Positions 3,722 through 26,081 of a stretch of DNA of 36,225 nt are shown piece by piece. Under the pieces are notes generated by a model, which saw only the letters and a list, made by a program, of their open reading frames with translations, was not told the DNA's origin and ran no database searches. The DNA lies in the IMG/VR virus record IMGVR_UViG_2526164670_000014. One strand, 5' to 3'. A program made the position numbers and the translations under genes. Every line of letters begins with the position of its first letter. Position 1 is the first letter of the stretch. This stretch comes from a virus (lineage: Duplodnaviria > Heunggongvirae > Uroviricota > Caudoviricetes).

Positions 3722-3948
3722 TGGCTGATGCAATGGATCTCGTACAGCAGCGCGTTGAAGAAGAACGCCAGCGCCATATCCGTGCTGCCCGTGCCAAAAC
3801 GCCGGGCGTGTCCCGCGTGCTTTGCATTGAGTGTGAAGCGCCAATTCCGCCAGCACGCCGCCGCGCCATTCCGGGTGTGCAGCTTTGCATTACCTGTCAG
3901 GAAATCGCAGAGCTGAAAGGCAAACATTACAACGGAGGTGCTGTATGA
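3721..3948 (+). CDS. TraR/DksA-family C4 zinc-finger protein
   Basis: 75 aa with CIECEAPIP...LCITCQ (CxxC-N17-CxxC) characteristic of phage TraR-like proteins. Confidence 0.75.
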   Translation: MADAMDLVQQRVEEERQRHIRAARAKTPGVSRVLCIECEAPIPPARRRAIPGVQLCITCQEIAELKGKHYNGGAV

Positions 3949-4802
3949 GCACCATCCTGAAATGGGCGGGAAATAAAACCGCCATTATGTCCGAACTGAA
4001 AAAGCATCTTCCTGCTGGCCAGCGACTGGTTGAACCTTTCGCGGGTTCCTGTGCTGTGATGATGGAGACGGAGTACCCCAGCTATCTTGTTGCGGATATT
4101 AATCCTGATTTAATCAACCTCTATAAAAAGGTTGCTGCTGATTGTGAATCGTTTATATCTCGCGCCAGAGCTTTATTTGAGGAAGCAAACAGGGAGGTGG
4201 CTTATTACAACATAAGGCAGGAGTTTAATTACTCAACTGAAATTACTGATTTCATGAAAGCGGTATATTTCCTGTATCTCAATCGTCACGGTTACCGTGG
4301 TTTATGTCGCTATAACAAGAGCGGGCATTTCAACATTCCCTACGGTAATTATAAAAATCCGTATTTCCCTGAAAAAGAAATTCGCGCTTTTGCAGAAAAA
4401 GCCCAGCGAGCAACGTTTATCTGCGCCAGCTTTGATGAAACGTTGGCGGTGTTGAAGGCGGGGGATGTGGTGTATTGCGATCCGCCTTATGACGGTACGT
4501 TTTCCGGCTATCACGCTGACGGCTTCACTGAAGATGACCAGTATCACCTGGCATCCGTTCTTGAACATCGGTCATCAGAAGGACATCCGGTCATTGTTTC
4601 TAACAGTGACACATCCCTGATCCGTTCGCTGTATCGCAATTTTACTCACCACTATATCAAGGTAAAACGCAGCATCGGTGTGGCAGCTGGCGAGGGTAAA
4701 TCAGCAACAGAAATCATTGCTGTTTCCGGGCCGCGCTGCTGGGTGGGATTTGATTATTCGCGTGGCGTGGATAATTCTGCCGTGTACGGAGTACGTGCAT
4801 GA
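3945..4802 (+). CDS. dam: DNA N6-adenine methyltransferase (Dam-like, orphan)
   Basis: Motifs PFAGS (SAM binding) and DPPY (catalytic); GGAGG upstream of ATG 3945; no restriction-enzyme partner adjacent. Confidence 0.85.
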
Positions 4803-7213
4803 GCCATGCCGATATGAACAACTGCTGCGGCTTTAACGAGGCTGCCGCATCGTTCTCATGGAACAGCCCGAAAAAGGCCATTAACCCTTATCTGGACCCG
4901 GCGGAAGTTGCGCCGGTTTCTACGCTTTCAAACCTGATCACTCTGTACGCTGCCGATAACGAGCAGGAACAGCTGCGCCGAGAGGCACTGAGTGATCAGG
5001 TCTGGGAGCGTTATTTCTTTAATGAATCCCGTGATCCTGTCCAGCGCGAAATGGAGCAGGATAAGCTCATTAGTCGGGCAAAGCTGGCGCATGAGCAGCA
5101 GCGTTTTAATCCGGATATGGTCATTCTGGCGGACGTCAACGCCCAGCCTTCCCATATCAGCAAGCCCCTGATGCAACGTATTGAATACTTCAGCAACCTG
5201 GGCAAGCCAAAGGCTTATTCCCGCTATTTACGTGAGACGATTAAGCCATGTCTGGAACGACTGGAGCATGTACGCGACAGCCAGCTATCTGCATCTTTTC
5301 GTTTTATGGCAAGCCATGAAGGGCTGGACGGCCTGTTTATCCTGCCTGAAATGAGTCAGGATCAGGTGAAGCGCCTGTCTACCCTTGTCGCTGCGCATAT
5401 GAGCATGTGCCTTGATGCCGCTTGTGGTGATTTGTATGCCACCGATGACGTTAAGCCAGAAGAAATCCGCAAGACATGGGAAAAGGTGGCAGCGGAAACC
5501 CTGCGTCTGGATGTTATCCCGCCTGCGTTTGAGCAACTCCGTCGGAAAAGAAACCGCCGTAAACCCGTGCCCTATGAACTCATTCCGGGTTCGCTGGCGC
5601 GTATGTTGTGCGCCGACTGGTGGTACCGGAAATTATGGAAGATGCGTTGCGAATGGCGGGAAGAGCAGTTGCGTGCTGTCTGCCTTGTCAGCAAAAAAGC
5701 ATCTCCCTATGTCAGCTATGAAGCCGTGCTGCATAAACGTGAGCAGCGCCGTAAGTCGCTGGAGTTTTTCCGTTCTCATGAACTGGTGAACGAAGACGGC
5801 GACACGCTGGACATGGAGGATGTGGTAAACGCCAGCAGCAGCAACCCTGCGCATCGCCGCAATGAGATGATGGCCTGTGTTAAAGGTCTGGAGCTTATCG
5901 CGGAAATGCGCGGTGACTGCGCCGTTTTCTACACCATCACCTGTCCGTCACGTTTCCATTCCACGCTAAATAACGGCAGGCCCAACCCGACCTGGACAAA
6001 TGCGACGGTAAGACAAAGCAGCGATTATCTGGTCGGTATGTTTGCTGCATTTCGTAAGGCGATGCACAAAGCCGGGTTGCGCTGGTATGGCGTGCGGGTG
6101 GCTGAGCCGCATCACGACGGCACAGTTCACTGGCACCTGTTGTGTTTCATGCGCAAAAAAGACCGCCGCGCCATTACTGCATTGTTGCGTAAGTTTGCTA
6201 TCCGTGAAGACCGCGAGGAGCTGGGCAATAACACGGGGCCGCGCTTTAAGTCTGAGCTGATTAACCCGCGCAAAGGAACGCCGACAAGCTACATAGCGAA
6301 ATACATCAGTAAGAACATTGACGGGCGTGGTCTGGCTGGCGAGATCAGCAAGGAAACGGGTAAATCTCTGCGTGATAACGCTGAATACGTGAATGCCTGG
6401 GCGTCTTTGCATCGTGTTCAGCAATTCCGCTTCTTTGGCATTCCGGGGCGTCAGGCTTACCGTGAACTGCGATTGCTGGCTGGTCAGGCGGCAAGGCAAC
6501 AGGGGGACAAAAAAGCAGGTGCGCCGGTACTGGATAACCCGCGCCTTGATGCCATCCTGGCTGCTGCTGATGCTGGTTGTTTTGCCACCTACATCATGAA
6601 GCAGGGCGGCGTACTGGTTCCCCGTAAATATCACCTCATCAGAACCGCTTATGAAATCAACGAAGAGCCGACCGCCTATGGCGATCACGGCATTCGTATT
6701 TATGGCATCTGGTCACCCATTGCAGAGGGCAAGATCTGCACTCATGCAGTGAAGTGGAAAATGGTTCGTAAAGCCGTTGACGTTCAGGAGGCGGCAGCCG
6801 ACCAGGGCGCTTGCGCCCCTTGGACTCGTGGCAATAACTGTCCCCTTGCTGAAAATTTGTACCAACAAGGGAAAGACAAATCAGCTGATGGGGATACCAG
6901 AACGGATATCATCCGTATGGATGACAAGGAGTTGCACGATTATCTGCACAGTATGAACAAAAAAGAGCGCCGAGAACTGGCTGCAAGGTTACGCCTGGTG
7001 AAACCGAAACGGCGTAGAGACTACAAACAGCGAATTACAGACCATCAACGACAGCAGCTCGTCTATGAACTGAAGTCCAGAGGATTTGATGGCAGCGAGA
7101 AAGAGGTCGATTTACTCCTTCGCGGCGGCAGCATTCCGTCAGGAGCAGGCCTGCGAATCTTCTATCGGAACCAGCGTTTGCAGGAAGATGATAAGTGGCG
7201 GAACCTGTATTAA
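4799..7213 (+). CDS. A: Rolling-circle replication initiator/endonuclease (P2 gpA family)
   Basis: 804 aa; HUH motif (TVHWHLL) and paired tyrosines YIAKYISK typical of gpA/phiX174-type Rep; start overlaps the dam stop. Confidence 0.85.
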
Positions 7214-7565: not shown

Positions 7566-7799
7566 ATGCGCATTGAAATAATGATCGATAAAGAGCAGAA
7601 GATTAGCCAGTCTATCCTGGACGCCCTTGAATCCGAGCTTTACCGCAATCTGCGCCCCCTGTATCCAAAAACGGTAATTCGTATCCGCAAAGGTAGCTCT
7701 AACGGTGTGGAACTGACCGGACTGCAACTGGACGAAGAAAGGAAGCAAGTGATGAAAATTATGCAGAAGGTGTGGGAAGACGATAGCTGGCTGCATTAA
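7566..7799 (+). CDS. dinI: DinI-family protein
   Basis: 77 aa from the ATG at 7566; MRIEIMIDKEQ...LDALESEL...RIRKG...KVWEDDSWL resembles E. coli DinI in length and sequence. Confidence 0.8.
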   Translation: MRIEIMIDKEQKISQSILDALESELYRNLRPLYPKTVIRIRKGSSNGVELTGLQLDEERKQVMKIMQKVWEDDSWLH

Positions 7800-7807
7800 G
7801 AAACGTT

Positions 7808-7837
7808 GCCCCCAGTAGGGTTCATTCTGATGGGGGC
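7808..7837 (+). terminator. Putative hairpin terminator after dinI
   Basis: gccccca-N16-tgggggc stem-loop right after the dinI stop; weak T-tract (tagttt). Confidence 0.35.
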
Positions 7838-7973
7838 TAGTTTGAGCAACGAGTGAAACGAGGCGTTAGGTGGGAGGCCATTTTGATAAGTTATCACCCA
7901 CTTTATACCAATAACAGAACTGCGTAATAACTATTTACCTCGGGGGAAGATGTGAGCCATACAAATTTCAGTA

Positions 7974-9032
7974 TTAATTTTCAATTCCCTCCATTTTACA
8001 ATGAGTTTTTTCCCAGAACTGTAATACAACAGGACTAGCCCACTCTGGCATCAGTGCGTTATTTAAAAAACTGAAAACATCATGAGACGCATCAGCATTT
8101 TTTCTAAGGAATTTCCAGCCTTTTCTAGTATTTATCTCAACAATACCTAACCCACCATCATCAAACATATGCATCTTGAATTCAGGATTGTTTACACCTA
8201 GAGATTTTATTTCTTTTATGTATGGACTATCTTCATCCATAAATATTTTCTCTATGTGCTTAGCACAATGATATATTTTATTTCGATAAGTTGATACGCT
8301 CACAGCGGTACGCGCTGTTGTTATTCCCATTCCTAATGGGGCATATGCTTTTCCATCCATCACTACGGGCAGATTTATTCCATTTTTTCTTAAGTTTGCA
8401 ATATCTGAATCTGTAGTTGGATGAATACAAGCTAAGCCTGAAATACCTTTCATTTCAAATATTTCTGCTGCTTCTGGCCAGTTGCGTATGAATGTTTCTA
8501 CCAAATCTCTTTGAGAAAAAAGATTTGGTTCTATGTTTTTATCATGATGTTTTATATCAATAAAAAGCACAGCGTTTGAGTACACCTTCAGGAATAATAC
8601 CCACTCAGCACGATCTGAGTATTTTTTACTTGAACTTACTGGATTTAATGGCAGATGGAGGTGATGAATCCCCCAATCAGCCCATAGGTTATCCGTTCTT
8701 TTCGTCGCCTTTTTACCGCTTGTGTCATTGAATAATGTTAATGTTTTACTCTGATAAGGATTTACATCACCACCAGTAGTAAACAACATCTCGATTCTCT
8801 GCAATCCAACCCTTGCGCCATCGTGAATATTTCCAGGAAATCGATCTGATTTTAAAATTATTCGTTTTTGTGGAGCAATGTAGCGTAAAAGAAAATCACA
8901 CCACCTCAGTAGAGGATCGTGAAGATTTGAGTGCCCGGATTCATCATATAATAACCCAAATGCTTGAATTCCCTTCTCTGAAATTTCGTCAATATCTTTG
9001 ATTAGATCAATATTTTTTCGTGCGTCCAACAT
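7974..9032 (-). CDS. Uncharacterised 352-aa protein in AT-rich accessory island (candidate anti-phage/accessory gene)
   Basis: Long uninterrupted ORF, GGAG 5-8 nt upstream of the ATG; about 28% GC by hand count on one 60-nt line versus about 58% on a structural-gene line; no family recognised by eye. Confidence 0.7.
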   Translation of the reverse strand: MLDARKNIDLIKDIDEISEKGIQAFGLLYDESGHSNLHDPLLRWCDFLLRYIAPQKRIILKSDRFPGNIHDGARVGLQRIEMLFTTGGDVNPYQSKTLTLFNDTSGKKATKRTDNLWADWGIHHLHLPLNPVSSSKKYSDRAEWVLFLKVYSNAVLFIDIKHHDKNIEPNLFSQRDLVETFIRNWPEAAEIFEMKGISGLACIHPTTDSDIANLRKNGINLPVVMDGKAYAPLGMGITTARTAVSVSTYRNKIYHCAKHIEKIFMDEDSPYIKEIKSLGVNNPEFKMHMFDDGGLGIVEINTRKGWKFLRKNADASHDVFSFLNNALMPEWASPVVLQFWEKTHCKMEGIEN

Positions 9033-9426
9033 ACTAACTCCGTTTAAATATAATTTTTTAGTATTTCAGTTAATTAATATCTATACGCCGTTATAGCTGA
9101 ATTTTCCGGTGATTTCAGGGCACATTAACCAATTTAGATAATACTATAGTAATGGTTGGGCTGATTTTTCAAGAACAAAAGTAATTTTCAAGCTTTGTAA
9201 CATGTTGATTTTTCACTTTTCGCTCAAGCGGGCTTTCATCTTTGCAAGCCCATATGTTCGTTTTTCAAGCGATTATTCAGATACGTTAACTTCCCATGGC
9301 AGTGCATGACTATGCTGCATGAAATCGCATGATCGATCGAGGATCGTCTATGCTTAGACCAGCCAGAAATGGCGGGCTTTTGCTCATGTCATGCAGCTGC
9401 ATGAAAACCACTGCATAAAGTGGGCA

Positions 9427-9445
9427 GGCGTGGCGGGGATACGAG
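9427..9445. other. cos-like sequence (candidate cohesive-end site)
   Basis: GGCGTGGCGGGGA matches the first 13 nt of the 19-nt cohesive end as I recall it for phage 186 (GGCGTGGCGGGGAAAGCAT); lies in a GC-rich patch between the two island genes. Confidence 0.35.
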
Positions 9446-9521
9446 CGCGCGCAACGGGTTGTCATTCAAACTCCAATGCTATAAAACTGTGTAATACAAA
9501 CAACTAAAGTAGGTGGCCTCA

Positions 9522-11267
9522 GTGGAACTGCAAGCAAATGCTCGAACCTTAACAAACGTGTTATCTGTAAATAAAAAATATATAGTCCCTAGATTCCAAA
9601 GAGAATATTCTTGGGGGAAGGAACAAGTAAGTGAACTTTGGCATGATATAGTTTCCAATATTCATTACCAGGAGGATGGGCAGTATCAATATGATGAGTA
9701 TTTCATCGGTGCTCTCGTTTTGGTCGGGCAGGAAACTAGCTCTGAGCTGATGATTGTAGATGGTCAACAACGTCTTACGACTCTTACTATATTGTTATCA
9801 GCATTATGTGATAAATTTAAGTTGATAAATGAGTTGGCTGTAGCTCAATCAATATATAATAATTATATATCTGGTATGGATGACGATGGCAGACCTTTTT
9901 TTAAATTAGTTAATGAAACTCCTAAGCCATACTTTCAAAACAACATTCAGCATATTGATAAGAGAAATGAAGGGCCGGAGTCCCTTGAAGAAAGAAACTT
10001 GCAATCTTCATATAATGATTTAACTGAGTATCTTTCAGAAGATAATCTTTGCCAGACATTAGGAGTAGATAGAGAGAAATTTATCTACTTGGAAGCGTTG
10101 AAGGCTGTGCGGGATCAAGTTCTACGGTATCTGAAAGTGATTTATATTACAGTTAATGATGAAGATGAAGCTTATACAATCTTTGAAACTCTGAATGCTA
10201 GGGGATTAAACTTAAGTTATGTAGATCTTATAAAAAACAAATTATTTAAGAAACTGAATGGCACACATCCTGATGATGATGCAAAAACTAAATGGAATAA
10301 AATTAGGCAAATAATTGCTAGTCGTAATGGTGTCGGTTCTATCGAGACATTTATCCGTCATTGGTGGGTGTCAAAATATTCTTATGTAAGTAGTGACACT
10401 CTTTATAAAGCTTTTCTGGATAAGTGGAAAAAAGGCGACATTGATGCTTCAGCGTTCATTGATGAGCTACTTTCAGATGCCGAGATATATGTGAAAATAT
10501 CATCGCCTACAGAACAGGATTTTCCTGAACTGGAAATGAAACCAGTTTATCGAGGTTTGCAGGCATTAAGGCTGTTTAACATATCTCAGAACAAACCATT
10601 TTTGTTATCTTTATTTAAGGCAAGAGCAAGAGGAACGCTAAAACTTGTTGATATGAATAATGCAGTGCTGTCAATTGAACGCTTTCATTTTATGTTTAAT
10701 GCTATTTGTTCATTGCGACCATCAGGTATTGAAAGTGCGTATGCTAAAGCTGCTAGGGCTTTAGTGGATGAAGGTTCTACTAAAGCTAGTAATAGACAAG
10801 TAATAAAGTCTTTGCTTGAAATGTTGGTGAAGAGAAAACCAGACATTAATATGTTTGTTGAAAAGTTTGTTATGCTTAAATTTTCAAATCAAGAGTTGAA
10901 AAATAAAAGGTTGATTCAGTACATTTTTAATAGACTTGAGTTACATCACATGAAAACGGGGGAGTATATGCCTGATTCATTAACATTAGAGCATATTCAG
11001 CCTCAGAGTGTGGGGGATTCTGAAGTATATAGCATGATAGGAAATTTATTACCACTTTCAAAAGAATTAAATGAAAAAGCTGGAAATAAGTCTGTTGTGG
11101 ATAAGCTTGAAATTTATAAACAATCACAATATGCGCTAGTTAAAATTTTTATTGATGAATTTGAAAATAAATATCAAGGAGAATGGACGCCCGATCATAT
11201 GAGATCAAGAGCTGCTGAACTAAGTATTTTATCGTATAATTCAGTATGGAAATTGGGGCGTGAGTAA
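9522..11267 (+). CDS. DUF262 (ParB-like NTPase) plus DUF1524 (His-Me/HNH-like nuclease) fusion protein, GmrSD-like type IV restriction family
   Basis: N-terminal YIVPRFQREYSW and DGQQRLTT motifs (DUF262); C-terminal LTLEHIQPQS...GNLLPLSKELNEKAGNK (DUF1524-like H..N..N); GTG start at 9522 with AGGTGG 5 nt upstream (ORF track begins at 9513); very AT-rich. Confidence 0.8.
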   Translation: MELQANARTLTNVLSVNKKYIVPRFQREYSWGKEQVSELWHDIVSNIHYQEDGQYQYDEYFIGALVLVGQETSSELMIVDGQQRLTTLTILLSALCDKFKLINELAVAQSIYNNYISGMDDDGRPFFKLVNETPKPYFQNNIQHIDKRNEGPESLEERNLQSSYNDLTEYLSEDNLCQTLGVDREKFIYLEALKAVRDQVLRYLKVIYITVNDEDEAYTIFETLNARGLNLSYVDLIKNKLFKKLNGTHPDDDAKTKWNKIRQIIASRNGVGSIETFIRHWWVSKYSYVSSDTLYKAFLDKWKKGDIDASAFIDELLSDAEIYVKISSPTEQDFPELEMKPVYRGLQALRLFNISQNKPFLLSLFKARARGTLKLVDMNNAVLSIERFHFMFNAICSLRPSGIESAYAKAARALVDEGSTKASNRQVIKSLLEMLVKRKPDINMFVEKFVMLKFSNQELKNKRLIQYIFNRLELHHMKTGEYMPDSLTLEHIQPQSVGDSEVYSMIGNLLPLSKELNEKAGNKSVVDKLEIYKQSQYALVKIFIDEFENKYQGEWTPDHMRSRAAELSILSYNSVWKLGRE

Positions 11268-11294
11268 ATGCCGGGGGGGGGCCCAGCATATTTA

Positions 11295-12344
11295 TCAAAA
11301 AGAATCGTTTGTGAAATTTAGGGAGTAGGCATCAAAGCGTATTGCTTCTTCGCCTAGCCAATAGTTAAGTTCTTGTAGCTGTTTCTGCAGGGGCATCAGT
11401 TCGTTGCGGACAAAAACACGACTAGCCTTCTCCACATCACCAAAGCCCCCAACATTATTAGGCATTATCCCCATCATTTGCGGCGGCACACGGTGTGCCG
11501 CCATCATGTCGTCCCGGCTCACGTTCTTGATATTCAGAAACTCATCCTTCGCCGCGACTTCTGACAACGGGATAATCTGAAGCCCGTCCTTTTTGCCGTT
11601 AGGAGAGTACATAAACAGGTTGCGGAAGTTGCCTGGCCCTTTGGCACTTTTCATTGCATTGCGGAGGTTGTTCACATCCTCCTGGTTCTGCGCGGCATCG
11701 GTCATGTACATGATGAAGCCTGCATGACTGCCGTTAATATAATACTTCCGGCGGAACAGCGTGGCGGACTCGTTGAGCAGGGCTGATGGAATGGCAGAAA
11801 GATAACCTGGCAGGCCGTAGATCTCCTGGTTGATGTCCGGTTCCATCAGATGAAAAATGCTGCCTTTCGTGAACTGATACGGCTGGGTTGTCATACCGTA
11901 TTGCACAAACCAGTAGGTATCCAGGTCTAACCCGCGTCGGGTGTATTTTGCCAGAGCAGGCTCAAGGGCGATAACTTCACCGAAGCGGTTCGTGCGTTTC
12001 TCCAGGTAGGCGTTACCAAATACCAGATAGTCCTGCACAAAACGTGAAAAAGCCTGCTGGCTGAGCAGCGGGTGAGGGATGTAGGTACTGGTCAGAATGT
12101 TGCATTTCACCGCAATTGGTGAGCTGTGATGCACGGCGGCGCGGAAGGTTCGTGCCAGTCCGTCAAAGCTGACGGGCGGCTCATACCAGCGGTCCATCTG
12201 TACGCATTCCACATAGTCCAGCAGTTCTCGGCGGTCCAGAACAGGAACGGGATCGCCGAAGCTGAATGCTTCGGCTGTAGTCTGGCTTTTAAGCTGGATC
12301 TGTTTCGTCGCCGCAGCGCGGTTCTTCTTACTCTTTCCCATCAA
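11295..12344 (-). CDS. Q: Portal protein (P2 gpQ family)
   Basis: 349 aa, immediately downstream of and overlapping the terminase ATPase gene; position and size as P2 Q. Confidence 0.85.
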   Translation of the reverse strand: MMGKSKKNRAAATKQIQLKSQTTAEAFSFGDPVPVLDRRELLDYVECVQMDRWYEPPVSFDGLARTFRAAVHHSSPIAVKCNILTSTYIPHPLLSQQAFSRFVQDYLVFGNAYLEKRTNRFGEVIALEPALAKYTRRGLDLDTYWFVQYGMTTQPYQFTKGSIFHLMEPDINQEIYGLPGYLSAIPSALLNESATLFRRKYYINGSHAGFIMYMTDAAQNQEDVNNLRNAMKSAKGPGNFRNLFMYSPNGKKDGLQIIPLSEVAAKDEFLNIKNVSRDDMMAAHRVPPQMMGIMPNNVGGFGDVEKASRVFVRNELMPLQKQLQELNYWLGEEAIRFDAYSLNFTNDSF

Positions 12345-14107
12345 AAAATCTCCACAATATTGCTGGTATTGGCGGATTCGCCCTGCAGCGGTTCGTTAAA
12401 CAATGCGTGCATCGTTGCCCAGGCCAGATCGGCGTGGCTGGCTTCTTCGCTGCGGCTGGCTTCATAGGTCGGGCGGTTGCCGCTGGCGGTGGTTGCGCGA
12501 CGGATTGCCATGAATGACTGCGCAATGTCGGTGTGTCCGGCGTCAAACTCCAGACGGCGGTGGCTGATAATGTCGTAGGCCTTGAGTACCAGGGCGTTTT
12601 TAACGTTGGGGTTGTAGACAAACTCCCGGACGGCTGGAAAAAACGCTTTCACGTTCTCGTAAACCCCGTGACCGACACCCGTCGAGTCGATGCCGATATA
12701 GGTCACGTTGTACTGCTCGGTCAGTTTTTTGATTGCATCAGCCTGGGCGCGGAAGTCCATCCCGCGCCACTGGTGACGCTCAAGAATGCGAAACTTACCG
12801 CCTGGCACGGCTGGCGGTGCCACCACCACGCATCCGGCGCTGTCGCCGTTCTGCGTACCTTTTGCCGGGTCATAACCGATCCACACCTCGCGCCAGCCAA
12901 ACGGGCGCAGGGCCAGTGCATGAAAGTCGGTCCAGACTTCCCAGCTGTCCACCATGCACGCCTGCAGTTCGCTGAGCGGGAACACGGACGCGAGATCGTC
13001 CACGAACTCGCACATCAGCAGGTTCTGATATTCGTCCGGGCTGTATTCCATGCGTAGCTGGTCGAGGTCGAACAGGTTACAGCCGCCGCGCACCGCATCT
13101 TCCACGGTGACTATCTGGCGGTATTGCCCGTCTGCGCACAGCAGGCCGGGGGCCAGATTGTTGTGGGACAGGTCGATGTCCACCTTATCGGCTTTGTTGC
13201 GCCCACGGTTGAACAGCGCACCGGACCAGAACGGATAAGCACTGTGTGTCAGGCTGGATGGCGTGGAAAAATAGGTCTGCCGCCATTTCTTGTGAATAGC
13301 CATACCGGAAGCCACTTTGCGCAGCTCCTGGAATTTCGGGATCCAGAAATATTCATCCAGATACAGGTTGCCGTGGTAACTCTGGGCCGTGCGGGCATTG
13401 GTGCCGAGGAAGTAAAGCGTGGCCCCGTCAGGAAGCACTATCGGATCACCTTTCAGCTCCACCTCGACTTCTTTGGCGAAGTCGATGATGTACTGCTTAA
13501 AGACGTGAGCCTGTGCCTTACTGGCAGAAAGGAAAATCTGGTTACGTCCGGTAAGCAGGGCGTCAATCAGGGCTTCACGGGCAAAGTAAAAGGTCGCGCC
13601 GATCTGGCGTGACTTCAGCAGGTTGCGGATGCGGTTGGTTTTTCCGGCTTCCCACCAGTGGCGCTGGTAGTTGAACATGGAGGAATGGAAAATTTCTTCC
13701 AGCTTCTCAATCTGTTCATCGGTGAAAACGTTCTTTTCCGGCTGACGGCGCGGGCCTTTGTTGCGGTTGGCGACGTTAGGGTTTAAGTCGGCTTCGTTGC
13801 CGCCATTGTTAAACTTGCCGATCCGCGCGTGGCGTTCCGACTGGCGCGCCAGCAGGTCAATCTCTTTGAAATCTTTCCCTTCTTTGTGCTCCTTCATAAT
13901 GAGCTGGCAATAGCGTGCGGCGGTGGTGAGCTGCATCTGATCCAGCGGCCCATAGTCACCCCACTTGTCGCGTTTTTTCCAGCTGTGAACGGTTGCAACT
14001 TTCTCGCCCAGCATTTCAGCAATGCGGGCTACGCGGTATCCCTGAAAGTACAGCAGCATGGCCTGCCGACGGGGATCGAGATCTGCGGGTGTCAGTGTGG
14101 TGTTCAT
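12341..14107 (-). CDS. P: Terminase large (ATPase) subunit (P2 gpP family)
   Basis: 588 aa, divergent from the O-N-M-L capsid operon exactly as in P2; size and position typical. Confidence 0.85.
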   Translation of the reverse strand: MNTTLTPADLDPRRQAMLLYFQGYRVARIAEMLGEKVATVHSWKKRDKWGDYGPLDQMQLTTAARYCQLIMKEHKEGKDFKEIDLLARQSERHARIGKFNNGGNEADLNPNVANRNKGPRRQPEKNVFTDEQIEKLEEIFHSSMFNYQRHWWEAGKTNRIRNLLKSRQIGATFYFAREALIDALLTGRNQIFLSASKAQAHVFKQYIIDFAKEVEVELKGDPIVLPDGATLYFLGTNARTAQSYHGNLYLDEYFWIPKFQELRKVASGMAIHKKWRQTYFSTPSSLTHSAYPFWSGALFNRGRNKADKVDIDLSHNNLAPGLLCADGQYRQIVTVEDAVRGGCNLFDLDQLRMEYSPDEYQNLLMCEFVDDLASVFPLSELQACMVDSWEVWTDFHALALRPFGWREVWIGYDPAKGTQNGDSAGCVVVAPPAVPGGKFRILERHQWRGMDFRAQADAIKKLTEQYNVTYIGIDSTGVGHGVYENVKAFFPAVREFVYNPNVKNALVLKAYDIISHRRLEFDAGHTDIAQSFMAIRRATTASGNRPTYEASRSEEASHADLAWATMHALFNEPLQGESANTSNIVEIF

Positions 14108-23948: not shown

Positions 23949-24392
23949 ATGAATCAATATATTTATTCCCCTTCGGAAAATGCATTTTATGCTGTTAATT
24001 TAAAAAATACTTATGAAGTAAATGGAACATGGCCCGCTGATGCATTAGATATTCCTGATGACATTTCTGTAAAATATATGGCGGAACCGCCACAAGGGAA
24101 AATCCGAGTTGCAGGGGAAAATGGTTTTCCCACATGGGCTGAAATACCTCCACCATCACATGAGGAACTTATTGAACAGGCCGAATCAGAGAGGCAATTA
24201 TTGATTAACCATGCCAACGAATACATGAACAGTAGGCAATGGTCTGGTAAAGCAGCTATTGGTCGCCTGAAGGGGGACGAGCTGGCGCAATATAATTTGT
24301 GGCTGGATTATCTGGACGCACTGGAACTGGTCGATACTTCCGGGGCGCCAGATATTGAATGGCCTACGCCTCCGGCAGTTCAGGCCAGATGA
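23949..24392 (+). CDS. G: Tail fibre assembly chaperone (P2 gpG family), orientation A
   Basis: 147 aa immediately after H, inside the invertible segment. Confidence 0.75.
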   Translation: MNQYIYSPSENAFYAVNLKNTYEVNGTWPADALDIPDDISVKYMAEPPQGKIRVAGENGFPTWAEIPPPSHEELIEQAESERQLLINHANEYMNSRQWSGKAAIGRLKGDELAQYNLWLDYLDALELVDTSGAPDIEWPTPPAVQAR

Positions 24393-24966
24393 CATCCGGC
24401 GCTGTGCTGGTATTTGTTGCCGTCACCGCGTCAATGTAATCCAGCACAGCGTTAAGCCGGGTTGTTTCTGCCTGCATCAACTTCCGTCCGGCCTGTAATT
24501 TCAGCTGAATCAGACTGATGGAAGCCATTGCAGCATCAATCAGTGACTGACGCTGTGCTTCTGCCGCGTCTACTGCGGCGCTATGCTGTGCCTCAGTATC
24601 GGTCACCCATTTCTCACCATCCCATTTATCGTATGGCGTTAATGGGGCGATAGTGGTTGTATTTTCGGGGTAATCACCCGGTGCTGTGATTTCTTTGGCA
24701 TCTCCCGTTTCGGTGTTATAGACGATTTCACCGCGATGGTCTGGCACATATTCCCATGAATTTAAATCTACAGAACGGCAAATTGTATAACCAGCCTTAT
24801 ATGTACTAGGAGCGTCTAAACAGGAATATGCTGGAATACCGACACCCACTGCAAGATATTCAGTTGATGCAGAAATATATTCCCGAGTTTCACCATCGTA
24901 GTTATAAACGGTAATATTCCCCGCCTTCGTGGCAATAAACTCGCTATTTAATACTGCGTTATCCAT
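24364..24966 (-). CDS. Alternative tail fibre assembly chaperone (G'), orientation B
   Basis: 200-aa ORF on the opposite strand, convergent with G and downstream of the alternative fibre cassette; C-terminal block similar to the G C-terminus (W..YLDAL/AVLDYIDAV..T...PDI.WP.PP). Confidence 0.7.
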   Translation of the reverse strand: MDNAVLNSEFIATKAGNITVYNYDGETREYISASTEYLAVGVGIPAYSCLDAPSTYKAGYTICRSVDLNSWEYVPDHRGEIVYNTETGDAKEITAPGDYPENTTTIAPLTPYDKWDGEKWVTDTEAQHSAAVDAAEAQRQSLIDAAMASISLIQLKLQAGRKLMQAETTRLNAVLDYIDAVTATNTSTAPDVIWPELPEA

Positions 24967-25445
24967 TATGCAGCCCTCACGATAAAGTTAAATGCAATAT
25001 TTCGTGGACGGGTCTCACTCCCACCAGTATTACCGATACTCCCTCGTGAATGAAGTGTCGGTGATGGGATCAGACTCCCTCCTGTATTTGTGGCATCAAG
25101 TCCCCGTCCTTGTGTGTATGTTTTTTTGAAAATCGTAGCCAGTTCCCATTCATCTTTTGTGTCGTAACCATCATTGGCAACAACAATATGGCGGTGTTTT
25201 TCCAGCATCCCAGCCTGAAGGCTCAATAAAGCACGTCCAGCATCAATACCACGCCCGTCATCCCAGCCACGAATAAACTCACCACGTAAATCTGGCAATT
25301 TATTTGTCGGGTAAGCCTTTGCCAGTTCCGGGTATTCTTCAGCAGAAAAAGCTGCTCCGTTGCATTTCAGCCAGCCTGTTGGCGGAGTGGCTGAAGGCCA
25401 CGGAACAGGGACACCAACAGGTAATGCAGAGCCTTCTCCCAAACC
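24966..25445 (-). CDS. Alternative tail-fibre C-terminal cassette (Hv'), promoterless until inversion
   Basis: Reverse-strand ORF beginning at crossover site 2 in the same frame as H relative to the shared GLGE codons; contains tail-fibre receptor-binding motifs (PTGW..C.G...S..EYPEL...LPDLRGEFIRG). Confidence 0.7.
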   Translation of the reverse strand, partial: GLGEGSALPVGVPVPWPSATPPTGWLKCNGAAFSAEEYPELAKAYPTNKLPDLRGEFIRGWDDGRGIDAGRALLSLQAGMLEKHRHIVVANDGYDTKDEWELATIFKKTYTQGRGLDATNTGGSLIPSPTLHSRGSIGNTGGSETRPRNIAFNFIVRAA

Positions 25446-25459
25446 AACGTTTAAGAAAA
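25434..25459 (+). repeat. Invertase crossover site 2 (gix/hix/cix-like 26-bp site)
   Basis: TTCTCCCAAACC-AA-CGTTTAAGAAAA; inverted relative to site 1; about 55 bp upstream of the invertase start. Confidence 0.7.
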
Positions 25460-25514
25460 TGCAGCGATTACGACTAACTGGCATCATCCCCGGTTTTTAT
25501 TCAGGGGATTGATC

Positions 25515-26081
25515 ATGCTTATTGGCTATGTACGCGTGTCAACAAATGACCAGAACACCGATTTGCAACGTAATGCACTGAACTGCGCGGGATGTGAGCG
25601 GATTTTTGAGGACAAAATCAGTGGCACTAAGTCCGACAGACCGGGGCTTAAAAAACTGCTCAGGACACTATCGGCAGGTGACACACTGGTTGTCTGGAAG
25701 CTGGACAGGTTGGGGCGCAGTATGCGGCATCTTGTTACGCTGATAGAAGAGTTGCGCCAGCGCGGCGTGAATTTCCGAAGCCTGACTGACAGTATTGATA
25801 CCAGTACCCCAATGGGCCGTTTCTTTTTTCATGTCATGGGTGCCCTGGCTGAAATGGAACGCGAACTGATAGTTGAACGTACCAGGGCAGGGCTGGCTGC
25901 AGCTCGTGCTAAAGGCAGAGTAGGTGGACGCCGTCCTAAGTTGACTACCGAACAGTGGGCACAGATTGGACGTTTACTCGAGGCCGGAGAATCAAGACAG
26001 CGTATTGCACTGATTTTTGATGTAGGCGTTTCTACCATTTATAGAAAATTTCCGGCAAATAAGAGCAATGAATCTCCCTGA
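25515..26081 (+). CDS. Serine DNA invertase (Gin/Cin/Pin/Hin family)
   Basis: 188 aa from the ATG at 25515; N-terminal GYVRVSTNDQ with catalytic Ser, resolvase core, C-terminal HTH (GESRQRIALIFDVGVSTIYRKF). Confidence 0.9.
   Translation: MLIGYVRVSTNDQNTDLQRNALNCAGCERIFEDKISGTKSDRPGLKKLLRTLSAGDTLVVWKLDRLGRSMRHLVTLIEELRQRGVNFRSLTDSIDTSTPMGRFFFHVMGALAEMERELIVERTRAGLAAARAKGRVGGRRPKLTTEQWAQIGRLLEAGESRQRIALIFDVGVSTIYRKFPANKSNESP

Follow-up and report, generated by a model that had tools for sequence, protein, structure and literature searches.

PD-T4-7, a single-gene abortive-infection defense in the hotspot of a P2-like prophage, and its predicted RelE/ParE-fold core

The gene at positions 7974 to 9032 on the minus strand of the window, which is the whole 36,225-nucleotide stretch of viral DNA analyzed here, is almost certainly PD-T4-7, a known one-gene abortive-infection defense that resides in a variable hotspot of P2-like prophages. 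PD-T4-7 has already been published, has been experimentally validated, and is present in PADLOC. Since the gene is catalogued and validated, the locus adds little as a discovery, and its remaining value lies in the mechanism. The analysis raises the "RelE-like" label of PD-T4-7 from a guess at 51% HHpred probability to a consistent fold assignment, and four invariant residues, D114, H124, H126, and H163, can be named as targets for mutation.

Identity of the gene and its place in the P2 hotspot

The PADLOC model PDLC04066 (PD-T4-7) matched residues 1 to 342 of the protein over profile positions 1 to 335 of 337, with an E-value of 8.7e-144 and a score of 476.6 bits. A second PADLOC model, PDLC04065, matched at 1.6e-39, and the other match in this collection, to PDC-S13, was weak (E = 0.035). 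Because the gene has been catalogued and validated under the name PD-T4-7, PADLOC detects it automatically. Scans against Pfam, NCBIfam, and PHROGs assigned no family to the protein, in agreement with the original prediction, which was made from the sequence alone and reported no assignable motif. That prediction had also named Abi_2 (AbiD/AbiF), Tin, and Old as known families to be set apart, and indeed no such match was obtained with Pfam or PADLOC. The exact protein is deposited as EFW73645.1 / WP_000883168.1, where it is annotated as "hypothetical protein." A variant from Escherichia coli ET350, WP_023568849.1, is identical at 351 of 352 residues; the window copy has G67 and not E67, at a position that is variable.

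PD-T4-7 is one of 21 systems obtained by functional selection (Vassallo et al. 2022, Nat Microbiol, PMC9519451). The reference copy comes from E. coli UMB0103 and consists of one CDS, RRN43039.1 (ORF 337619-338677, 1059 nt); the window ORF is equal to it in length. The reference gene and its own promoter (337452-339101) were placed without any other gene in a promoterless low-copy vector; PD-T4-7 was found in the selection with T4 and is among the systems that gave abortive-infection defense (PMC9519451). Of the published primers, PD-T4-7-F matched the window exactly at 7807-7827 over its annealing part, and PD-T4-7-R was placed at 9438-9455 with 2 mismatches at the 5' end of the primer, a site that is exact in E. 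coli ET350. The resulting fragment measures 1649 nt (1650 nt in the paper), and its end is separated from the ORF by 167 nt in the window and the published clone alike. Because the published primers frame a fragment of matching geometry, the window carries the validated PD-T4-7 locus. The same study describes P2 hotspot #1 as the interval flanked by the replication endonuclease gene and the portal gene (PMC9519451), which is the position of the window copy as well. By HMM, ORF length, primer geometry, and hotspot position, the window gene is the same gene as the reference. The expectation of a new single-gene defense or abortive-infection protein was therefore right about the kind of system, given the published single-gene clone, and wrong about its novelty, as both PADLOC and the primers identify PD-T4-7.

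The features of the locus are as follows:

7974-9032, minus strand: PD-T4-7 coding sequence, 352 aa plus stop (PADLOC PDLC04066)
9038-9041, minus strand: Shine-Dalgarno GGAG, which is evident in the sequence itself and precedes the ATG by 5 nt
9143-9172, minus strand: candidate sigma-70-like promoter (TTGAAA, 18-nt spacer, TATAGT), 10/12 matches in a consensus scan and a consensus match only
7807-9455: equivalent of the published, functionally validated PD-T4-7 clone, by primer mapping
7800-11294: P2 defense hotspot, a low-GC island reaching from the DinI-like gene to the portal gene, with PD-T4-7 and an independent GmrSD/HEC-06-type gene
4799-7213: gpA-type replication endonuclease, one flank of the hotspot
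End at 7799: DinI-like gene, convergent with the PD-T4-7 gene
11295-14107: portal and terminase genes, the other flank of the hotspot
9513-11267, plus strand: GmrSD-type gene (DUF262 plus DUF1524-like), with matches to Pfam GmrSD_N (1e-38) and GmrSD_C (1.2e-11) and to the PADLOC candidate HEC-06 (3.8e-90)

As the original prediction stated, the ORF is complete, with an ATG start, 352 codons, a stop, and a good Shine-Dalgarno sequence. The start codon is backed by the N-terminal alignment of homologs, and a stop-free run over 352 codons would arise by chance with a probability of ~5e-13, given the base composition of the ORF itself. The AT-rich codon usage noted earlier is borne out by a GC content of 36.1% overall and 27.5% at third positions, compared with 53-57% for gpA and terminase, which belong to the P2 backbone. 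The candidate promoter falls within the stretch equivalent to the published self-sufficient clone.

The window represents an entire P2-like prophage; the integrase lies at the left end, and host genes begin at ~33600. Its GC profile places the low-GC island at ~7800-11300, and the flanking genes confirm the earlier assignment to a P2-type defense hotspot. The GmrSD-type gene adjoins PD-T4-7 in divergent orientation, also as predicted, with a 480-nt control region in common, and probably encodes a separate enzyme of the hotspot, one that restricts modified DNA.

Several further elements of the window were recorded. The convergent DinI-like and PD-T4-7 genes have a GC-rich hairpin between them, at 7808-7837 (GCCCCCA, 16-nt loop, TGGGGGC); the loop of this hairpin is too long for it to be scored in the terminator scan, and the published PD-T4-7 clone begins exactly at this hairpin. 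A D12-class N6-adenine DNA methyltransferase (Dam-like, 3885-4802, plus strand) is encoded in the early operon immediately ahead of the replication gene and overlaps the gpA start by 4 nt. A second low-GC dip, at 24364-26081, contains a tail-fiber inversion module composed of a Resolvase/HTH_7 invertase (25509-26081, plus strand) and, in the opposite orientation, tail-collar and tail-fiber-assembly ORFs (24364-25487, minus strand) downstream of the main tail-fiber genes.

Predicted structure and conserved residues

An AlphaFold2 model, which was built from an alignment of 79 homologs, reached a pLDDT of 91 and a pTM of 0.89. The parts of the protein and its principal motifs are as follows:

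8871-9032, minus strand: N-terminal helical segment, residues 1-54, acidic, with predicted helices at 10-24 and 40-50
8523-8870, minus strand: core, residues ~55-170, with a predicted RelE/ParE (BECR) fold
8691-8693, minus strand: D114, invariant, in the conserved RTDxLWADWGIHHLHL
8655-8663, minus strand: H124-L125-H126 in predicted strand beta2, candidate catalytic pair (codons CAC CTC CAT)
8544-8546, minus strand: H163, invariant, just past predicted strand beta4
7977-8522, minus strand: C-terminal half, residues 171-352, with a conserved GMGxTTAxT loop (234-242) and a fold that has no solved relative

Residues ~55-170 are predicted to adopt the RelE/ParE (BECR) fold and not a restriction-endonuclease-like fold. 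Structure matches to the model and their scores were as follows:

HigB1 (7nbu): 9.2, with 98 of 121 residues aligned
HigB (6af3): 8.2
Archaeal RelE (two structures): 7.6
HigB2: 7.3
YoeB: 6.7
YafQ: 6.3
E. coli RelE: 6.2
ParE2: 5.9
Cami1 (CARF-RelE enzyme): 5.9

Foldseek, one of the checks that had been proposed for this protein, agreed in its ranking. Its best match was YafQ, at a probability of 0.82 and with an E-value that was not significant. Links to RelE families at the level of sequence are weak. An hhalign run against the YafO family alignment placed the whole YafO toxin colinear with residues 58-160 (E = 0.014, probability 3%) and paired the invariant H124-x-H126 with the invariant H60-x-H62 of YafO. 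At a probability of 3%, this alignment is suggestive and no more. It agrees with the published HHpred match to YafO_toxin (51% probability, residues 118-164) on which the "RelE toxin-like" label of Vassallo et al. is based (PMC9519451). Alignments with hhalign against single YafO and YafQ sequences were not significant, and the profile showed no similarity to YafQ. A Pfam scan of the 79 aligned homologs revealed no family common to them and no match to a RelE-type toxin family, with a single match to ParE_toxin at an E-value of 0.042.

The original prediction had suggested a PD-(D/E)xK-like arrangement, in which PD-T4-7 would be a DNase acting through D140 and D159-x-K161. All three residues exist in the window copy, and D159 is invariant or nearly so, but D140 and K161 vary in the family, with only R141 and D159 conserved in this stretch, and no endonuclease-like fold was found. 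The idea fails because D140 and K161 are variable and the predicted fold is RelE/ParE-like, and we regard a DNase of this kind as highly improbable.

Conservation is deepest within the core. D114, H124, H126, and H163 are invariant in the 79 homologs as well as in a wider set of 49 sequences reaching down to 24% identity, where they are the sole invariant positions; R57, R141, D159, R215, and G236 are nearly invariant across the 49 sequences. When the conserved positions were placed on the model, H124 and H126 fell on predicted strand beta2 and R141 ahead of beta3; D159 and H163, which are four residues apart, fell at the end of beta4. RelE, YoeB, YafQ, and HigB carry catalytic Lys, Arg, and His residues. 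By position, as judged from the order of secondary-structure elements alone, the conserved residues of PD-T4-7 seem to sit where those toxins have their catalytic residues.

ParE toxins share the RelE fold and are not nucleases. The core of PD-T4-7 could in principle be non-catalytic as well, either poisoning gyrase in the manner of ParE or serving as a binding module, with killing performed by the C-terminal half and its GMGxTTAxT loop. This arrangement is unlikely in our estimation. The residues conserved most deeply are three His and one Asp within the RelE-like core, whereas the C-terminal motifs erode across the same range, to 24% identity, over which the core His and Asp residues persist. 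A subfamily of ~290 aa keeps the core and is devoid of a short insertion and of the last ~40 residues. Moreover, ParE toxins are without such catalytic residues (Gerdes 2025).

The N-terminal segment has a pI of 4.8, and its pI is below 6 in 84% of the 79 homologs. The RelE-like segment has a pI of 9.6 in the window copy, with a family median of ~7. This charge pattern is weak evidence for a fused toxin-antitoxin because the basic core is not conserved, although the acidic N terminus is. The C-terminal half, modeled and searched alone, returned no structural relative. A profile search of PDB sequences yielded matches to the MLKL helical bundle (E ~0.03), the sole ones found, and these were rejected as chance matches because the region is predicted as beta strand. 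The 2022 paper described residues ~193-258 as tail-sheath-like; no structural or profile similarity to sheath or TssC proteins was found. The "sheath-like" and PD-(D/E)xK labels can thus both be removed.

Compared with the type II toxins YafO, RelE, HigB, YoeB, and YafQ, which are ~90-130 aa long, PD-T4-7 is a protein of 352 aa. Unlike YafO/RelE-type toxins, it has no Pfam-level membership and no adjacent antitoxin gene, and it contains a conserved 30-residue insertion (NPYQSK...NDTSG...RTD) located between the helix and strand beta2. Because an adjacent antitoxin gene is absent, PD-T4-7 is RelE-toxin-like at most and is no canonical toxin-antitoxin pair.

Family, distribution, and neighboring genes

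The locus was present at ≥99% identity in 48 of 5426 complete E. coli genomes, ET350 among them. A word-indexed search for homologs returned 129 clusters, nearly all ~335-350 aa in length and without informative names, which derive from Enterobacterales, Aeromonas, Burkholderiales, Halomonas, Methylophaga, and others. An exhaustive profile search showed the family to be large, with 3477 clusters at 50% identity, 1235 of them at E ≤ 1e-30. No homolog was detected by tblastn against 50,697 deposited phage genomes; the family comes so far from bacterial chromosomes, prophages, and metagenomes only, though the window copy is located in a P2-like prophage.

Neighborhoods of six homologs from different genera were compared:

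Providencia homolog: in an integrase/AlpA element, beside a PvuRts1I/SRA-type enzyme, with an AAA_15/21 ATPase ~3 kb away
Paraburkholderia homolog: in an island downstream of glmS
Methylophaga homolog: after uvrC-pgsA
Aeromonas and Variovorax homologs: solitary amid housekeeping genes
Homolog identical to the protein of Burkholderia sp. CCGE1003, on a metagenome contig: amid uncharacterized genes

No gene was common to the six neighborhoods, and neither the window gene nor any of these homologs was accompanied by a small conserved partner ORF or an antitoxin gene. This comparison, which had likewise been proposed with the original prediction, indicates a single gene, and the family is shown to be one without a partner gene.

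The adjacency of PD-T4-7 and the GmrSD-type gene, which diverge from one shared control region, would also fit a two-gene system in which PD-T4-7 is functional only together with its neighbor, and ET350, the one annotated example among the 48 genomes, also has a neighboring DUF262 gene. However, the published clone, which stops at a point corresponding to window position 9455 and does not reach the GmrSD start at 9513, was validated as a defense nonetheless. The DUF262 gene of ET350 is a different allele from that of the window, and homology with the 48 genomes stops at window position 9452. Conversely, the window GmrSD allele is found in six other genomes without PD-T4-7, and a DUF262 neighbor is absent from all six homolog neighborhoods listed above. 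Since a single-gene clone has been published and the neighbors vary, the two-gene system is ruled out, and we assign it a negligible probability.

Window positions 7800-9452 are ≥99% identical to the 48 complete E. coli genomes, and homology with all 48 ends at 9452, so that the final two bases of the published R-primer site lie just beyond it. Window positions 9302-11300 show 98.9% identity to the 6 other genomes; in WL7562, the one examined, unrelated hypothetical genes precede the GmrSD allele. The two tracts overlap by ~150 nt at 9302-9452, in the intergenic region upstream of the GmrSD gene, and the overlap is a likely recombination point. The P2 hotspot looks to have been assembled from independently exchanged cassettes, and the locus offers a clear example of defense cassettes swapped in this way. 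The Rousset 2022 paper on P2 hotspots does not mention DUF262 or GmrSD, and matches to the term "RelE" in it were unrelated words.

Single divergent family members were also observed. A degraded PD-T4-7 homolog was found in Logan assemblies (L015 801-1844 and L016, from SRR24111680 / SRR24111682), with an 89-aa ORF corresponding to residues ~5-53 (hhalign 98%) and a 193-aa ORF corresponding to profile positions 155-333. As just 193 nt separate the two ORFs, the RelE-like core is deleted. In this single case, the toxic domain could have been lost naturally. Two candidates for naturally split, two-gene versions of PD-T4-7 were rejected: one is a gene cut by a contig end and the other is this degraded copy without the core, so that neither is evidence for a two-gene ancestor. 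In a further single case, a 3-kb Logan contig encodes a protein (P0130) whose residues 13-129 share 45% identity with residues 10-127 of PD-T4-7. The similarity ends right after the HHLH motif, and this part is fused to a DUF1780 "putative endonuclease" domain, the only Pfam domain among the 129 clusters. The chimera may have arisen from a genuine domain swap or from faulty assembly.

Proposed mechanism and comparison with known systems

With moderate confidence, we favor the reading that PD-T4-7 is a RelE-fold endoribonuclease which is activated by infection and arrests translation; its RNase activity, its ribosome dependence, and a phage trigger are what we infer. Residues ~55-170 would constitute the RelE/ParE (BECR)-fold endoribonuclease, with an active site formed from D114, H124, H126, and H163 plus the nearly invariant R141 and D159. 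In the uninfected cell, the enzyme would be held inactive by the acidic N-terminal helices and the C-terminal half of the same chain, although the autoinhibitory and sensor roles given here to the flanking regions are purely conjectural. Infection by T4 would relieve the inhibition, and the freed RNase would cut mRNA, most likely on the ribosome, in the manner of YafO, RelE, and Cami1. Translation would then halt, and the infected cell would die or arrest with no release of phage. By expressing the gene from its own promoter, the prophage would protect the lysogen population against competing phages.

Cutting of mRNA at the A site is not the only activity that the core could have. Colicins E5 and D are BECR-fold enzymes that cut tRNA or rRNA, and the RelE-fold core of PD-T4-7 could similarly be a ribosome-independent tRNA or rRNA nuclease, for which we see a small but appreciable chance. 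The core is set between ~54 N-terminal and ~180 C-terminal residues, which could hinder its entry into the A site, and the invariant His and Asp residues would suit any acid-base RNase. A ribosome-independent member of the superfamily is known in MqsR (Gerdes 2025).

A 2024 survey places PD-T4-7 among RNase systems whose mechanisms, it states, "remain to be elucidated." No description of the mechanism, RNase activity, target, or trigger of PD-T4-7 was found in the literature searched, and PD-T4-7 is not included in the Gerdes 2025 survey of RelE/ParE defense toxins.

By sequence, PD-T4-7 is no member of the YafO/RelE, Cami1, or CapRel families, and likenesses to these systems concern architecture or logic. 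It probably works like YafO/RelE-type toxins. Cami1, the CARF-RelE fusion of type III CRISPR (PDB 8phb, 8phj), is alike in architecture in that another domain is joined to a RelE effector. In Cami1, however, the switch is cyclic tetra-adenylate bound at the CARF domain, whereas PD-T4-7 is without a CARF domain and has flanking domains that resemble no known fold. CapRel(SJ46) may be alike in logic, as a single chain that combines a translation-targeting toxin with an inhibitory and sensing region and acts by abortive infection (2024 survey), but its toxin is a RelA/SpoT-like pyrophosphokinase, a fold unrelated to the PD-T4-7 core.

A more specific version of the favored mechanism can be put forward tentatively. 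A ribosome-dependent RelE-fold RNase would be held off in cis by the acidic N terminus and by the C-terminal domain, whose fold is unseen elsewhere and which would directly recognize a protein of T-even phages, following a CapRel-like logic. If the tentative version were true, the family of >3000 clusters at 50% identity would represent RelE immune sensors made of a single chain and overlooked in surveys based on Pfam. A RelE-superfamily toxin serves abortive-infection defense in PD-lambda-2, a system from the same screen as PD-T4-7. PD-lambda-2 has three genes, a clear HigB_toxin Pfam match (HHpred 99.8%), and separate antitoxin-like partners, whereas PD-T4-7 is a single gene.
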